Assembly (NCBI GenBank): GCA_036172245.1
Contig: JAYWIR010000012.1
Span: 4,278,001 to 4,342,000, forward strand
DNA: 64,000 bases
Origin: Raillietiella orientalis
Lineage: Eukaryota
Reading direction: 5' to 3'
The position numbers were made by a program, and so were the translations under genes. Of this stretch, positions 16,701-41,265 are shown one piece after another. Below the pieces are notes generated by a model. It searched no databases, was not told the DNA's origin, and worked only from the letters and a program-made list of their open reading frames with translations. The stretch's first letter is position 1; each line of letters begins with the position of its first letter.

Positions 16701-17419
16701 CGTGTTTACGCGCGTCCCAATAGTAACGAGCAGCCTCCACGTGAGGCGCGCACTAGAGAGCGCGCGCGCGCGCGCGGAGAAGGCGAGGATTCCTCCGTCG
16801 CTCTGTTTTCGGACGCGCGCGCGACGTGGAGAAGACCTCGTGTCGAGTTGGTTGCCGCCTATGGTCAACTGTTGATGACGACGACGACGACGACGATCAA
16901 GAAGAATGGGGACGCGAGGAGATTTCCCAGTTCGAAGAACACCACTCGCGGCTCGTCTTGGCGGCAGCACCTCACAAAGCACTCACGGAAGTGTCATCGT
17001 CTCAAAAACAAGTTACTGGAAACATCGGAGCACCTACGCCACGGATCCCCCCCCCCGCCACACCAAAAAAAAAAAAAAAACAGGGCAGAAGGTCGTGTAC
17101 ACTCCAGCTGATGCCACGGGAACGCCTTTGAACGTTTCCATAATTTAAGGTGTACCAAGAAACCCCCGAGAAGGCAGGGCAGGCCCACTTCGTTGGGGTA
17201 GGCGCTCCCCGTCGCTGCTGCTGCTGCACGTACCCTTCCTTCTTACCGTCCGCATCTGTGGCTAAGAGATGGGGCATGCGCGGTACTCCTCGGTGGGGTC
17301 GGCTTCGTTCTTGGGAGCGTGGTGGGCTGCTGCTGGAGCCCGTGCAGGGTTACCTCAATGTTCTGCCATACTCAAAGACTTCGAGTTGTGAAAAAAAAAA
17401 AAAAAAAAAAAAAAACACA

Positions 17420-17565: not shown

Positions 17566-17958
17566 TTACATATCTTTCGGGCAAGATCGCAAGATATCCA
17601 TCTTCCTTCGGAGGAGAGCGTTCAGTTCCATTTGGCGCCTGCGTTCGTTCGCCAGGAGGTCGTGTTCCCGGCGCAAAGCGCGACAGTTATCAACGGCTCT
17701 ATCCAGAATGGAGGCTTTGGGGGCCCTTTCGGACTGGCTGAGTTCGGGCAGCAGGGCCCGCAGCTTGTCGAAGGCGATACGGAGCTCTATGCGCCGCTGC
17801 CGTTCCAAGGTGTTATGGAAGGCTGGCTTTTTGCGAGGCGCCTTCGCTGGACGCTGCGCCACCTCCTCCCGGCTCTCTATCCGCCCGGGCGCCAGCAAGG
17901 AAGCTTGGGCTTGGTGCAGACGCACTTTCATTACTCGGTTACCGTTCTCAGTGGGGAA
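17566..17958 (-). CDS. myc: Myc (copy A), coding exon 3: bHLH-leucine zipper
   Basis: Follows a 59-nt GT..AG intron (18017-17959, phase 0). Encodes HNTLERQRRIELRIAFDKLRALLP...APKASILDRA...zipper, with the canonical His/Glu/Arg basic residues for CACGTG binding. TAA at 17568-17566. Confidence 0.93.
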   Translation of the reverse strand, partial: FPTENGNRVMKVRLHQAQASLLAPGRIESREEVAQRPAKAPRKKPAFHNTLERQRRIELRIAFDKLRALLPELSQSERAPKASILDRAVDNCRALRREHDLLANERRRQMELNALLRRKMDILRSCPKDM

Positions 17959-18017: not shown

Positions 18018-18151
18018 TTGAATAATGTGTGACGTTGCATTATCATTCAAAATAGTCGCCAAAGCAAGCTGTAGTTTTTTTCTTAGAGGTTCGCTCAGCT
18101 GCGAAAGTTTAATAGCATTTCTCTTATTAGAAAATACATCCGTTTCTTCCT
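18018..18151 (-). CDS. myc: Myc (copy A), coding exon 2
   Basis: Acceptor (T)n-GCAG|AG completes SDS-E-EETDV, matching the Myc acidic EEEIDV motif. The frame is open for 134 nt and ends at donor CAA|GTAAGG; reading on into the intron hits an in-frame TAA. Confidence 0.85.
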
Positions 18152-18753: not shown

Positions 18754-19222
18754 CTGAATCGGAAGGAGTTGGCAACCCTTGGAATGCATACGGCTTTCTC
18801 CTGGAAGTACCATAGCTGTGATCCAAGTGCATTGTATTGGGACTAGGCATTTTCGTTTCCTGAAGTACAGATTCGGAATCACACTCGGGTAAACTGGAGG
18901 GAGGACTGTCTGGGTAGGCGAATTCACTGTTGGGAGTACCAGCTGGATCAGCGAACTCGGAAGTTCTGTTTGGACCATGGTCATGTTTTTGATGATGTTC
19001 TTTGCTAATACAGGAGCCGGACCACATGCAATCGTGTCTGAGTTCGCATCTGATTTCTGGTTCACATTCGCTTGCCCACTCGTGAGACGCGTGTCCGAAG
19101 GAATACGTGGAGCAGTTGTTGTTCGACAGGTCGAACTTCTTCCAGATGTCGTCACTGGGAGTCGCGAACTCCTCTCCCGTGCTGTCGAAGAAGCAGTCGC
19201 CGCTCATGTTGCACAGACTCAT
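18754..19222 (-). CDS. myc: Myc transcription factor (copy A), coding exon 1: MBI core, MBII and start of the MBIII/acidic region
   Basis: ATG at 19222 in a CAAAATG context. Translation contains PSDDIWKKFDL (MBI core, 19159-19127), LRHDCMWSGSC (MBII), LDHSYG and LPTPSDS. It ends at the donor TCAG|GTACGT (phase 1), the intron position conserved in metazoan myc genes. The upstream GTG start in the ORF track is unverified. Confidence 0.93.
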
Positions 19223-19810: not shown

Positions 19811-21499
19811 TTGAGCCTGCGTTGGTGTTCCTCTCTCCGCCGTTCCTTCTTTCGCTTCCAGATGCGTTCGAAGGAAAAAAAAAAAAAAAAAAAAAGTCGG
19901 AAAAAAAAATTCTGTGAACGCCCCCGTGTACACTTTATTACCTGTTCGTGGGGATCGTGTGTGTGTTGCAACGCATCACTTCAATGCTTGAAATGGAAAG
20001 CAAGCATTTTTCATCTCCTCTGCTCTTCCTGAGCAGTCCGCGCCTCTCGCACTCACGCCCGAAATTTCGGCCCGATGCGCCTTGCATTTGCAACTGCTCT
20101 GGTTTTCAGAGAAGGCACGGCATTCCACGGATGCCCTCTCTGGGCTGCGAGACCACATCCTCGCCGGCCCTGGCTGGAGGTAGCCGTGTGCCACCGACCA
20201 GCCCGAGCAGCGGGATGGAGCAGCAGCCGACACCGTCTTCGCCGCGAGAAGAAGAAGAGGACGCCGTGAAAGGGTTCGGAGCGACCGATGTCGGCAAAGA
20301 GGGACGGCGAGAGGAGAGGCGCTTATCAGTCGCGACAGCATGGCCTGGACAGAATGCTGTTCGGATGATTCTCTCTCTCTCTCACTCTCTCTCTCTCTTT
20401 TTTTTTTTTTTCCTTTCCTTCCTCTTCCCCCTTCTGTGAACGTCCAAGAAGCGCAGGCAGGTGATTTCCGCGGAAAGCCGGCGGAAAGTGGAGAGAAATC
20501 TCCTGCAGCGTTCCACCCTTTTCGAAACGTGGACAAGTTCAAGCGTGACTCATTTTCCATCGATTCGTTCGATTTGCTGTGGCGTACTCATCGTCTACCG
20601 TCGATGAAAACCCTGCGGTTCGTCTACGGTTTGCATTTCCTCAGGGCAACTCTGTCACCCTTTGCTTTCTTTTTCCTTTTTTTTTTCCCCCCCCCCCCTT
20701 CTTCCTTTTCCTTTTTTTTTTTTTTTTTTTTCGCACGGCGTATATATATATATATGCAGATATTTTCGAAAGTCGCGCAAGTCGCGCAAACAACAACAAC
20801 AGCAGCGATTTGTTCTTCGTAATTAGAGTTTCGCGAAATGCTCGGTTAAAGCGTCGTGGAAACGAAAATCGATTGTCGTTTTCGAACGAAACGCGCGCTC
20901 CGTAACCAACATCACCGCCGAGCAACAGCACACGTGTCTAATTACACTCCCATTGTTCGTAGTTGATTGCTTCCAGCATCGCCGCCGATTGTTGGCGTCG
21001 ACGATTTCAATAATGCGGAATCAACGAATCCGCCGTTCGCGACGCGCGCGTCCAACTCCGCAGGGTTTCACCTAGGCAACCCCCGCGCTTCCCGCCGCCA
21101 CTCTCGCGTATTTTCGGCAGGTTCGCCGGCTCCCCAACCAGCAGCCTCTTCCACGCGGGCGCGTCGGGTCTGCCTCGGCGGGACCACATTCTTCCCCCCG
21201 TCCGCTATGCCAGGAGCTGAAGTGGTGACAGAAGTCGTGGCAATCATCACGTACGATCTGCAGCGATAACCACAGATAAGTGCTGCTCTAGTTGCAGTCT
21301 GACTCTTCCAACTTACGTTTCTAGGTTACCTCGATGAGATGCCAGGGCGAGGAAGCGCGCGCGGGCTCTCTACCCGGGAGCGACGCTCGTCTGGACCCAG
21401 CATCGTCAAAGTCTGGCCAAAACCTCCCCCACCCACCCACCCCACCCCTCCTTCCCTCTGGGAGGAAGGTCCAGTCGGAACTCCACCCCGGGCAGATGA

Positions 21500-35240: not shown

Positions 35241-38200
35241 CGTTCGACCTACTTCATCAATTCCAGGGTCTCCAGACGCCAGCAACAGCCTTTTTTTTTT
35301 TTTTTTTTCCCTTTTCAATTTTCCAATTAGAGACGATAGCGGCGACTGCGCACGCGCGCGGCGCAAAGTCCGGACGCCGGAGCGCCCACCGCCGCTTCTG
35401 CCCAGGCACCCTCTCGGACGTCCCGAGGCACGCTCCTGCCTTCCTGCTGCTCTGCATCAGTGGCTTGGTGCGCCATCTCGCGTGAAGGGGTGTGTGTGGG
35501 CGGGTGGCGTCCCGCGGCTACCGCGCTGGGAGGATTCGCAGCGCCTGCGCAGGAGTGCGGTGGGCCTGCTCGCACGTACTTCCCCTCCCACGGCGCGCCA
35601 AGATCGGTTTTCCGGGCCACCGGAAAGGACTGCCTCGCTATTTTCCTTTCTTCTCGATCTCCCAAGCGCTGCCCCTCCCCTCCTGCCACGCCACGCCGGG
35701 AGAGGAGCGAACCCTCCCTCCTTCCCGGCGAGCGAGGCACTCGACGAACACCGGAAAGGGTTGCCGTGGTGAGCGGAGGACCGCGTTTACAGGAAGCGGA
35801 AACCCGCTGCCGGGGTCTTCCTTTCGGATGAAGGGGGAGGGAGGGGCGGGGAAGGTCGCGTCTTCAGGCTCGAAAGCCCCCTCGGGATGCTGGAAGCGAC
35901 TTCGTGCCGAAGAGGAGGAGGGTGATCCGTGACTACGGAGACTGGGAATGGACCTCGGAACGGCCACAAAGTCGAAGATGCGCGGCCAGCCGCTTGGGGT
36001 TCTCCGCACTCGAGGTCGCCCCCTTCCGCCTCGATGCCGGACCAGAAGCGCGAGCGAAGTCTCGGTCCTTCCTCCGGGAGGATTCCGCCCCGGATGCGGC
36101 AGCAGGCCATCGGGACGCGCTCCGGTTCCTCTTCTGGACGATGGGAAGAGGCGGCGAGAGCTGCGCGAGTGCGTGCCCTGGAAAGGCGAGGGGAGATCGG
36201 CAGCCCCAAGGCCAGCCGGGAAGCGTCGGGGAGCGTTCCGTGTGTGGGGCACAGCCGCGCGCCCGGACGGGGAACGAGGAGGAAGGGAGGAATGGGAAAA
36301 GTGGGGGAGTAAAGGAGGAAGAAGGGGAAGGGAAGGAGGGAAGATGGGAGGAAAAAAAGAAGGAAGAAGAGGGAGGAGGGGTCGACCTTCGCCTCCAGCT
36401 CCTCCCACCGACTACCCGAAGACGCCTGGACTAGACCCGTCCTGGCCCCTTCGCTGCCGCCCTCGTCGGCCTTCTGACACTCAGGGGGCCATGTGAGGTG
36501 CCCAGTGGCGGCCCTTGCAGGTCCCCCCCGCAGGACACGCACAGCACTGGGTCGACGGCGCCGGCGCTCTCTTTTTTCCCGGCGGGGGGGAGGGAGACCA
36601 GAAGAACAGAGGGACGAAGGATGGGGAGGGGGAGAACCGCAGAGCGCGTGACCATCTCAACAGTGGAGGCGAGCGTTGCCTAGGAACGGAGGACGAAGGG
36701 AAACCGCGCGCGGGGGGTACTTGCCGAAAGCCGCCTGCGGCCCGTCCCGGGAAACGGGACACGTCCTTCCTCGAGGGAAGGGCCGCCGCTCTTTCCCTTC
36801 TCCGGATCCCGTGGGAACCGCGACATCCTGCCGTCCCTCGCGGATCAGCCTCGGGGCAGGGAGGGGGAGGCGGCGCGCTCGAACGGGAGCGAGAGGGCGA
36901 AGGAGCTGCTGGGCGGCGGCGCGCCCCTGGAGATGCCTGGAGCAGCTCGGAACGGGAAGGCTGCCTCCCGGGAGGCCGCACGCTCATCTTCCCAGGGGTG
37001 GCTTGCCTGGCGCCTGGAGACGGGCTGCGAGCGGGCGCAAGAAGGGGAGGGAGGTTGGCAAGGGATGGGTGGCACCGACTCCGAGGAAGGCAGCCCTCCC
37101 TCCCTCCTCCTTTTTCCTCCTCGAGACAGGAGACGAGAGAAGGAGGAGATGGGCGCGCCGACCTGCCTCGACCTCCACCCTCCCTCGACTCTCTCGTTGC
37201 TGCCGCGTCTACAATTTTCCCCTTAACCCCTCCCCCTCGCTCGCGACAGCGCCATCCCGCGGCTCAAGGGTTCTGTCCGAGGGCGGGATCATCGTCGGAG
37301 CCGCCTCGCCACGGTAGCAGCAGCGCCTTCCGCTGCGGCCGCGGCGAATCAAGGAAGTTCCGTCGCCGAAGAGGTCGTGAAACGGAAGGGGGGTGGGGGG
37401 ATAGGGACGGAGTCTCCCTCCCGCCTTTCATCTCTACCCCCTCCACCAACACCACGACCACCATCCTTGCTCCCCCTCCCCTTCCCCCTGTCTCCCCAGG
37501 GGTTCTCCAGGTGCGCGTGGGCATGAGGAGGGAAAGGAAGCGGCATCCCTCCGCCCCTGCCTTCCCGCAGACGGGGGGGGGGGAGAGGAGGGGGGCGATG
37601 CTGCTGCGGCTGCTGCACACGTGTCGGGATGAACGCGCCGTCCAACTGCCGAGCGCCGATAAGATCGCGCCGTTCCGTGTTTTCCCAGCGATAAGGATGT
37701 TTGCCGAATCTGGCGCCAGGGCTCCACCGCGGGCGGAAGTCCTCGACCCGACCGGGAGGCTGCTCCCCCGCGGGAGGAGGAGAAGGGCGCCGGGCGGTGG
37801 TGCGCGCGGACGACCCGCCGCCGTCGCCTCCTGATGCAGCAGCAGCCTCGGTGGGACCTACCTTCCTTCTTTTCCCTCCCACGAGGTCCCACGGACGCCT
37901 CCCCGAGGAAGCAGAGGAGAGGGTTGGAGTGGGGGAAGGAAACGCCCGCTGCCGCGGCTCCTCTCTCCCTCTAGCTCGCGGAAGGAATCCGCGGACGGCG
38001 TCCCCTGCGTCACTCCGCGCCGCTCCCCCCCCCCCCCCTCTTCTGCCGCCGCTCGCACTCCCAACAAGTGGTCCGGTGACTCAGCGCTAATTGGCGCGAC
38101 ACGGGAGGGAAACGGGAAGGAGCGCGCGCGATAATCGGATGGCGTGCCGCAGGAGCGCGAGCGGGAGAGGCCCCCGCCAACAGGCCACTTGGGCGCTCCT

Positions 38201-39273
38201 CTTCCGACCGGGAAAAAGTCCCGTTGTCCTCCTCCTCCTCCTCGCCTCGCGGCTGGTGCGCACCCTTTCCTCATCTGCGCCCCCCGGCACACCCGCGCGG
38301 AGGGGACACCGCTCAACGTGGACCTCAACGCGCGCCGTGATCGGTGGGACCGCTTGGGGCAGGGCAAAAAGTTCCCCGGTCTTCCTGCTGCCTCCGCGCG
38401 CGGCCTGGAACTGCGGCCAGCCGAGCCGGCGAAGACCCCCGGGGGATCTTTCCGGCCTGCCCCGAGCGTCTCCGCATCGCCGCTACGAGGACGGCGCGTT
38501 CCGTTCGGCGGCGGCGGCTCTGCGAGATTTCGTTCCGGCCGCTCCGCATGTCCGCGCGCGCGTACGTCCTACCCGTCGCCTGGAGACGGGAGTCCCGCGA
38601 GGAGGCTTCGCGAGGGGAAAGCTGTTTCTCCCCCTTAAGGGGGAGTGGAAGCTGCTGGGGCAGGAGCACCGCTTAGTTGACGGATCGGGAACAAACGTGG
38701 GGGGAGTCATGGGGAGAGCGTTCAAGGCTGCCGTAGGTTTCGTATTCGCAGCCCGCCCGACTGTTCGCGCGCGCTCCGCAACCATGGCGCCGCGGCGTGC
38801 CGGGCGCCTAGCGACGACGGCGAGCGCCGCGTCTCGCGGGCCGAGAAGCCAGGCGGCTTGGAAGGGGAACAAAAGGCAACGTCCACGGTGGACCTCCCCG
38901 AAAGCCCTTGTTCGCACGCACGTGCGTGTGATGGAGCGCGCGAGTGCCCGCGCACGCGTGATTTTTCCCCCCGAGCCGGATGAAGTGCGAACGCGCGCTT
39001 TCCTCTCTCTGGAGATCCTTCGGAACACGTCCCGCCGCTCCGTGTGCGCAACACGCCTCCGAAATTTCCATACGCTTAATTAAGTTAAATTGCTCCCGGT
39101 GGCAGCCAGCAGTTCTGGCGAAACATCCATTTGTGCGACGTGCGGACAATAGGGGACTCCACGCACACATGGGCTGCTGCGCAGAGCGCCTCTGACGACC
39201 TTTCTATTTATTATTATTATTATTATTTTTTTCCCCAACCTTCTCCGACCCGTGGATCCGGGAAAACGCAGAT

Positions 39274-40042: not shown

Positions 40043-40076
40043 GTGACGTCACCCGTCCGCGCTCGGTTAAAAATTT
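40043..40076 (+). promoter_or_regulatory. Candidate proximal promoter of myc-like copy B
   Basis: Perfect CRE palindrome GTGACGTCAC (40043-40052), followed by AT-rich TTAAAAATTT (40067-40076) in a GC-rich context, 70-100 nt upstream of the ATG. A second TGACGT half-site lies at about 40135. Confidence 0.45.
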
Positions 40077-40146
40077 CCCGCACGTTCGCCCCGCACTGCG
40101 TCGTGAGAGCGGGGGTGCAGTGCGCTTGCGATGGTGACGTGCCACC

Positions 40147-40860
40147 ATGTGCGACTCGGACGGAGGAGACCCGGAGCGCGCTGGCGCCGCTTTCGGGAGC
40201 GGCGCCTGGGATGAGCGCGACGCGCCGAGCGCCACCCTTCCCCAGTCTCCCCCACCCCTCACCGCCCCCGGCCTCCCGGAAGGGCTCCTGCCCTCGCGGA
40301 CTCGACCCACGAGAGGGTTGCGGCGCCACGACTGCATGTGGTCCGGCTCGTGTCAGAGCCGGGAGCACAGGAAGGGCGCGTTCTCGAGCCCGAACTCCCT
40401 GGACTCGGACCCGGAGGAGGAGGAGCAATCCGCTCCCAGGAAAGGTAGGAAGGCAAACGCTCCGGGGGACGACGCGCTGACCTTCCCGCTCGCAGCCGCG
40501 GTCGCGCGCGGCGGGGCCAGGCGCGAGAGGGCACCCAGGCTGGTGTCGGTGCTCAACCCCAGCGTCGTGGGACGCCGGGCAGTGCACCCGCCGCCCAAGG
40601 GAGCGAAGAGGCACCGTCGAGGGGAGCTGAGGTTGTCCTTCGAGAAGCTGCGCCTGCAGCTGCCGAGCGTCAACCGGAACCCGAGGGCGTCGAAGGCGGC
40701 GATCCTGCTGTCGGCCGTGGGCCAGGTGGCGCAGCTGCGGACCGACAGCCAGCGGCTCTTCGCCGAGGAGCAGCGCCTCCGGGTGACGAAGGACAAGCTG
40801 GAGTCCTCCAAGCAGCGGCTGGAGAGACAGATGATCGATTTATACCACCAGGTGCAGTGA
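40147..40860 (+). CDS. Intronless Myc-like paralogue (copy B): MBII plus HLH-Zip with a degenerate basic region
   Basis: GCCACCATG start with an in-frame TGA just upstream. Contains RHDCMWSGSCQSREH (MBII), acidic DSDPEEEE, HLH ELRLSFEKLRLQLP...RASKAAILLSA and six heptad leucines. Uninterrupted 237-aa ORF. Confidence 0.9.
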   Translation: MCDSDGGDPERAGAAFGSGAWDERDAPSATLPQSPPPLTAPGLPEGLLPSRTRPTRGLRRHDCMWSGSCQSREHRKGAFSSPNSLDSDPEEEEQSAPRKGRKANAPGDDALTFPLAAAVARGGARRERAPRLVSVLNPSVVGRRAVHPPPKGAKRHRRGELRLSFEKLRLQLPSVNRNPRASKAAILLSAVGQVAQLRTDSQRLFAEEQRLRVTKDKLESSKQRLERQMIDLYHQVQ

Positions 40861-41259: not shown

Positions 41260-41265
41260 AATAAA
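41260..41265 (+). terminator. Candidate polyadenylation signal of myc-like copy B
   Basis: First AATAAA after the stop (400 nt downstream), followed by GTGTGTTTTTTTT about 50 nt further on. Confidence 0.5.

Follow-up and report, generated by a model that had tools for sequence, protein, structure and literature searches.

A Myc-family gene with a degenerate basic region, possibly an E-box-blind paralogue, close to a canonical Myc gene in Raillietiella orientalis

What remains of a Myc protein once the residues that read its DNA site have changed is the question raised by a locus in Raillietiella orientalis (GenBank assembly GCA_036172245.1, contig JAYWIR010000012.1, positions 4,278,001 to 4,342,000 of the forward strand). 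The whole stretch of 64,000 nucleotides that was analysed, referred to here as the window, holds two Myc-like genes, copy A and copy B, which lie 21 kb apart on opposite strands in a head-to-head arrangement; when both copies, together with nine further Myc proteins, served as tblastn queries, the window yielded no third Myc-like locus. We put at roughly one half the probability that copy B is a functional, E-box-blind Myc paralogue of copy A, old and intronless. The parts of copy B are listed below, with positions counted from the first letter of the window.

40147-40860, + strand: copy B, an intronless Myc-family open reading frame (ORF) of 237 codons, with the stop codon TGA at 40858-40860
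40324-40353, + strand: Myc box II (MBII) core RHDCMWSGSC, residues 60-69, recognised by its identity to copy A
40573-40620, + strand: degenerate basic region RRAVH-PPP-KGAKRHRR, residues 143-158
40588-40596, + strand: nine-nucleotide, three-proline insertion CCG CCG CCC between the histidine at b5 and position b6, from the gap columns of a MAFFT alignment
40606-40608, + strand: AAG, Lys154, at the invariant E-box-contacting glutamate (b9; c-Myc E363), from a HMMER alignment to 1nkp_A
40621-40857, + strand: helix 1, loop, helix 2 and leucine zipper
41260-41265, + strand: AATAAA, a candidate poly(A) signal by consensus match, its function presumed

The frame of copy B is open throughout its 237 codons, with neither frameshift nor internal stop and no need of an intron, and its start ATG sits within a perfect GCCACCATG context at 40141-40149 (+). 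Along it follow the MBII core, an acidic run (SDPEEEEQ), the basic stretch, the helix-loop-helix (HLH) and six leucines at an exact seven-residue spacing, as read from the translation. The AATAAA lies about 400 nt past the stop and is the only one in the following 4.9 kb; on the other side of the gene, a perfect palindromic CRE (TGACGTCA) occurs at 40044-40051 (+), about 100 nt 5' of the ATG. An in-frame 51-nt segment at 40445-40495 (+) begins AAAG/GTAGGA and has a pyrimidine-rich end (...CTCGCAG); were it spliced out, the linker would be shorter by 17 residues, with the frame and the basic region the same. Small introns do exist in this genome, since copy A has one of 59 nt. Among the features that characterise Myc proteins, MBII and a Myc-type HLH-leucine zipper (HLH-LZ) are found in copy B and the basic-region motif and Myc box I (MBI) are not, the latter having been sought with BLASTP and tblastn. 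Residues ~21-43 (40215-40275, +), W-DERD...LPQSPPPLTAP, loosely recall the two halves of MBI, a Trp-containing part and then a Pro-directed phosphodegron; there is an extra proline, and the resemblance, which is suggestive, was picked up by no search tool.

Copy A provides the comparison closest to hand, and its gene model consists of three predicted coding exons.

18754-19222, - strand: coding exon with MBI (DDIWKKFDL) and MBII, predicted from frames and splice consensus
18018-18151, - strand: middle coding exon (EEETDVFSNKR...), predicted from a polypyrimidine-AG acceptor and a CAA/GTAAGG donor
17566-17958, - strand: last coding exon with an intact bHLH-zipper, predicted from the gene model and the Pfam HLH match

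The first of these exons ends in a GTACGT donor, in phase 1, and copy B is unbroken at the positions of both copy A introns. The last carries a canonical basic region (KKPAFHNTLERQRR, 17829-17791, -) and matches Pfam HLH with an E-value of 9.2e-13 over profile positions 4-52, and copy A has a PDB match to c-Myc (E 1.5e-9). Both MBII and the 'PTPSDS/EEE-x-DV' junction of copy A look most like those of insect Myc (bed bug, whitefly); the middle exon has no significant similarity to bed-bug Myc. Copies A and B share an extension of MBII, SGSC-x-S-[KR]-EH, and a Lys-Ala pair that opens helix 2. With respect to MBI, DDIWKKFDL represents the first half, and the Pro-rich second half is absent from copy A. 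A short frame, ATG CGC GCA CCA CTG GCA AAA TGA (19243-19220, -), overlaps the start of copy A in another frame and is a possible uORF.

The preliminary description of this DNA had reported that the basic region of copy B is interrupted by three prolines after the conserved histidine and carries lysine in place of the invariant glutamate, and the alignments bear this out. The codons at 40573-40620 (+), CGC CGG GCA GTG CAC CCG CCG CCC AAG GGA GCG AAG AGG CAC CGT CGA, translate to RRAVHPPPKGAKRHRR, that is R143 R A V H147 P P P150 K G A K154 R H R R158. A MAFFT alignment of 14 bHLHZ sequences, made up of copy A, copy B and 12 proteins from a HMMER scan, opens a three-column gap after the conserved histidine which is filled by the PPP of copy B alone (1/14). 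When copy B is compared with the PDB by phmmer, its KRHRRGELR is aligned to ERQRRNELK of c-Myc, which sets Lys154 on the glutamate, as does the MAFFT alignment. Numbered b1-b13 after McFerrin and Atchley (excerpts of PMC3177325), copy B has lysine for both Asn b6 and Glu b9, His b5 displaced by PPP, glycine at b7 and histidine at b11, and keeps the three arginines at b10, b12 and b13; 8 of the 16 residues 143-158 are Lys, Arg or His.

How unusual this is can be judged from the motif H-N-x-x-E-R-x-R-R: every one of its His, Asn, Glu and three Arg residues occurs in 11 of 11 reference Myc-type sequences, and the motif was also read by eye in both of two metagenomic Myc loci. Copy B misses two of these six invariant positions, the Asn and the Glu. 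The reference set numbers 11 because a predicted lemur 'N-myc-like' protein (P0013) was removed ahead of counting conserved columns, its own basic region being aberrant, with Arg for His b5 and Phe for Arg b10. This entry probably stems from the prediction of a retrocopy or pseudogene, and it illustrates that deviant basic regions occur in annotated databases too. The Pfam HLH match of copy B spans profile positions 10-46 only, as against 4-52 in copy A, so that its basic part is left unaligned. As to how the prolines may have been gained, CCGCCGCC is present 49 times in the window, and slippage at the insertion CCGCCGCCC would for this reason be mutationally easy.

Beyond the basic region the picture is one of conservation. 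Copy B matches Pfam HLH at an E-value of about 6.5e-6 to 6.7e-6 (26.3 bits, cut-off 20.7), and its best PDB sequence match by phmmer is the c-Myc bHLHZ (E 1.4e-7). Its HLH-LZ retains 9/9 invariant positions, 13/13 near-invariant ones (at least 9 of the 11 references) and 17/19 of those conserved in at least 8 of 11, and thereby equals or exceeds copy A, for which the same classes give 9/9, 12/13 and 13/19. The invariant positions missed by copy B thus amount to 2/6 in the basic region versus 0/9 in the HLH-LZ, a difference which, with so few positions, is not significant alone. Judged by alignment, damage in copy B appears to be limited to the DNA-reading residues. In the zipper, the phmmer alignment sets Thr and Lys of copy B where c-Myc has Arg423 and Arg424, so that a preference for Max is not assured.

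Predicted structures are in keeping with this division. An AlphaFold2 monomer model of copy B residues 131-237, made from a 19-row alignment and without DNA, has a mean pLDDT of 88 and helices at model residues 21-41 and 53-106. In it helix 1 begins at Lys151, directly after PPP, with a pLDDT of 47-57 over the 20 residues that lead up to it; copy A, modelled by the same procedure as a control, is helical from b1 through all of b1-b13 and helix 1. The earlier expectation that the prolines break the recognition helix thus agrees with the models. The best fold match of copy B is 6g6l_C, the MYC chain of human MYC:MAX crystals (TM 0.91, rmsd 0.7 Å). A complex prediction of the copy A bHLHZ with the copy B HLH-LZ scored 0.73, with one unrelated control at 0.65, and is counted neither for nor against pairing.

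It had also been suggested that the basic region is disabled and that copy B is an 'Id-like' Myc. The former is borne out for the base-reading residues, Asn b6 and Glu b9 being replaced and His b5 pushed out of register; the arginines at b10, b12 and b13 are kept. The latter is overstated, and we do not retain it as worded, because copy B keeps these backbone arginines in a strongly basic stretch, a full leucine zipper and MBII. Membership of the Id/Emc proteins (group D HLH) was considered and rejected, given its basic residues, six-heptad zipper and MBII. The comparison with Id would fit the idea of an antagonist and not the anatomy, in which copy B seems nearer to a natural version of the engineered MycHEA discussed below than to Id.

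Whether copy B is a real gene cannot be argued from the length of its frame. In the window 223 frames run for 150 aa or more without a stop, which at 62% GC makes ORF length worthless as coding evidence, and for copy B it was rejected as such. Pfam was run on every ORF in the window that reaches 178 aa, and copy B was the sole one of these 145 to match any family (HLH). Its GC content at the three codon positions is 0.688/0.553/0.878, and the difference GC3-GC2, 0.325, is the strongest periodicity among 114 ORFs of at least 200 aa (0.005 ± 0.063); the second-highest value, 0.174, belongs to the antisense frame of copy B itself. Over the HLH-LZ, GC2 falls to 0.42 and GC3 reaches 0.92, within DNA of 0.69-0.71 GC, and a GC2 so far under background argues against old neutral sequence, which would drift to background. 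Periodicity is weak over the first 59 codons (GC 0.75/0.71/0.80).

The comparison of the two copies adds an indication of age. Synonymous differences are saturated (pS 0.95 in MBII and 0.67 in the HLH, with pN of 0.24 and 0.40), identity in the HLH is 46%, and the ten residues of the MBII core are identical (10/10) despite four synonymous differences, the extended block being identical at 15/24; the MBII block of copy B also matches that of insect Myc by tblastn. These values span both lineages since the split, and are silent on when constraint ended or on the copy B branch alone. Taken together, the sequences suggest that copy B probably split from copy A long ago and has been under constraint. 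In a maximum-likelihood tree of the 14 bHLHZ sequences (94 columns) both copies form long branches and 6/11 inner branches are open, so that it has no bearing on whether the two are sisters.

With regard to its origin, copy B may have arisen by retroposition, or by local duplication followed by intron loss, to judge from the gene structures. It is without both copy A introns, like known Myc retrogenes (excerpts of PMC3177325), and yet adjoins copy A. Of the marks of a retrogene, neither a poly(A) tract nor flanking repeats were observed at copy B, and the age of the split would have erased them. A search for an inverted duplication found the flanks of the two copies joined by low-complexity (inverted-repeat) matches only.

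A reading frame of this kind could also be a retrocopy or duplicate whose function was lost recently, the lesions of the basic region being the first visible damage, and its frame could have survived because stop codons are rare in DNA of 69% GC. Copy B lacks introns and copy A has two, the Myc retrocopies S-Myc and L-Myc2 are known (excerpts of PMC3177325), the window is rich in chance frames (the 223 of at least 150 aa), no orthologue was matched, the N-terminal coding signature is weak and the lemur prediction has a similarly deviant basic region, all of which such decay would accommodate. What makes it unlikely in our assessment is that synonymous saturation marks an old copy that has nevertheless kept all 9 invariant and 13 near-invariant HLH-LZ positions, its six leucines in heptads and the ten residues of the MBII core, with GC2 still far under background and 237 codons free of frameshift or stop; neutral loss, moreover, would not strike the DNA-reading positions alone while sparing the HLH-LZ and MBII. 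An error of sequencing or assembly, by which the nine-nucleotide insertion, the G-to-A change or both would mask a normal basic region, might be expected in DNA of 69-71% GC with CCG-type repeats and CCGCCGCC 49 times in the window. We regard it as very improbable, since restoring the canonical motif needs the insertion removed and at least Lys to Asn, a change of the Gly, Ala to Leu and Lys to Glu, and an in-frame error of nine nucleotides together with several substitutions would seem an unusual error pattern.

There is, in addition, a reading in which the basic region has been re-specified rather than lost, with a copy B:Max dimer reading a new asymmetric site composed of the CAC half of Max and a novel half-site bound by a short helix rich in Lys, His and Arg. 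We know of no bHLHZ case of such re-specification of DNA binding. The model of copy B does keep KGAKRHRR as a predicted helical and highly basic segment, with a histidine gained at b11, and the retention of MBII suggests that copy B still brings cofactors to chromatin. MycHEA acquired a weak preference for CACGTC, according to excerpts of a preprint (bioRxiv 10.1101/2020.05.04.076190), and AHR may serve as an analogous precedent for the reading of a non-canonical half-site beside ARNT (excerpts of PMC8440571). The helix of copy B is shortened, however, to ~8 residues ahead of helix 1, with glycine at b7, and we consider this course of events quite unlikely.

The preferred reading, that copy B is an E-box-blind Myc, draws on what is known of the individual residues. 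In c-Myc, H359 and E363 bond to bases that are invariant in the E-box, and R364, R366 and R367 hold the backbone (bioRxiv 10.1101/2020.05.04.076190, in excerpt). According to the same excerpts, Myc H359A/E363A still co-precipitates Max and keeps non-specific and open-chromatin binding, loses E-box recognition, does not switch on Myc targets and, on overexpression, slows growth, and Myc R364/366/367A loses all DNA binding. For Max, excerpts of a further preprint (bioRxiv 10.64898/2026.04.01.715400) report that E32K makes E-box and non-specific DNA indistinguishable, that R35P kinks and unfolds the basic region, and that dimerisation is kept in both. Since copy B combines lesions of both kinds, in the glutamate and other base contacts and through prolines, with retention of the arginines, we read it as an E-box-blind Myc that would still dimerise. 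Selection would have maintained MBII for the docking of cofactors and the HLH-LZ for dimerisation. Lysine at b9 and b6, together with PPP, which would end the helix and put His b5 out of register, would abolish E-box reading, and the arginines at b10, b12 and b13 could still grip the DNA backbone. Copy B would be expected to pair with Max through its HLH-LZ, and the dimer to touch DNA non-specifically or by the Max half-site, without recognising CACGTG; being blind to that site, copy B would therefore compete for Max and for chromatin with copy A, which is E-box-competent, and so act as a putative antagonist. The altered sequence, the selective conservation, the coding signature and the shortening of the helix in the model were observed; that copy B is expressed, binds Max, no longer binds the E-box and acts as an antagonist is what this reading predicts. 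Its fuller form, in which copy B is expressed and selected, is paired with Max and brings MBII cofactors to chromatin without reading the E-box, either as an antagonist or as a re-aimed factor, is one that we consider less likely than not.

Relatives of copy B were sought in several collections, and none of these yielded an orthologue. A search for homologous proteins, among those of near length for copy B and of longer and near length for the last exon of copy A, returned nothing at E ≤ 1e-3. With HMMER, 1.84 billion representatives were scanned and 19 matches obtained (best E 8.4e-7), all of them at or below 41% identity, so that copy B has no close relative in that scan. A scan of metagenomes gave two loci; both are Myc transcripts of the ordinary kind, have a canonical basic region and were matched via MBII only.

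The surroundings of the two genes have few features. The window (1-64000) is 62% GC, with a CpG observed/expected ratio of ~0.99 and thus no CpG depletion, and the exons of copy A are its least GC-rich part (0.48-0.55). Rfam and tRNA scans of the window gave no match, and Pfam, run on 145 long ORFs and on 150 of 152 short ORFs from the lower-GC parts, gave only the HLH of copy B and a sub-threshold FAM27. Outside the two Myc genes the window looks like a GC-rich gene desert. Such surroundings and the insect-like features of copy A would, taken together, point to a non-vertebrate animal. CACGTG occurs 17 times in it, versus 7.2 ± 2.6 in 100 dinucleotide-preserving shuffles (largest 14), for example at 38919-38924, 37618-37623, 20931-20936 and 16738-16743; two of them fall in the 2.6 kb upstream of copy B, and the flanks of copy A have others. 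The surplus may be an effect of composition or may represent Myc/Max autoregulatory sites.

If the preferred reading is true, copy B is a natural experiment on the function of Myc once sequence recognition is gone. It is debated how far Myc acts via the E-box and how far via non-specific engagement of open chromatin and recruitment of cofactors, and so far engineered proteins such as MycHEA and MycRA have been used; an E-box-blind copy B would be a natural version of that work, situated beside a canonical Myc gene, and could expose an endogenous Myc antagonist within the Max network. In a full-text search of open-access papers and bioRxiv, no description of a natural Myc-family member of this type was found.

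Several known systems resemble copy B in part. With canonical Myc (c-, N- and L-Myc, and that of insects) it shares MBII (DCMW), a stretch of acidic residues and, at the C-terminus, an HLH-leucine zipper, and it differs in having no Asn b6 or Glu b9, in the added PPP, in the lack of a detected MBI, in its length of 237 aa and in being intronless. The likeness to Id/Emc is one of idea, namely an HLH partner that gives a dimer blind to the E-box. Id proteins have no basic stretch, zipper or Myc boxes and target E-proteins, whereas copy B has a basic stretch, a zipper and a Myc box and would target Max. B-Myc is, like copy B, an extra intronless member of the Myc family; it lacks the whole bHLHZ and does not bind DNA. 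S-Myc and L-Myc2 are further such copies (excerpts of PMC3177325). In copy B the HLH-LZ is retained, the paralogue is 21 kb away and divergence is far greater (46% HLH identity). Hydra Myc3, as described in excerpts of PMC10177328, is also a divergent invertebrate Myc paralogue minus one functional module, and its loss is the opposite one, there being no Myc boxes and a retained Myc-specific bHLH-LZ, whereas copy B keeps MBII and has a degenerate basic region. In AHR, Ser36, His39 and Arg40, which overlap a nuclear localisation signal, read the XRE half-site, and ARNT gives the canonical half (excerpts of PMC8440571). MAX E32K and R35P, as covered by the excerpts cited above, have in common with copy B lysine in place of glutamate at b9 and a proline within the basic region; they are somatic or germline cancer variants of Max with the proline elsewhere, whereas copy B is an evolved Myc paralogue. 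MycHEA, within the excerpted text, resembles copy B in that the His and Glu base contacts are lost and the three backbone arginines kept, which is not the MycRA pattern, and copy B differs from it in being a natural gene, in having Lys rather than Ala at b9, in its proline break and in the loss of Asn b6.
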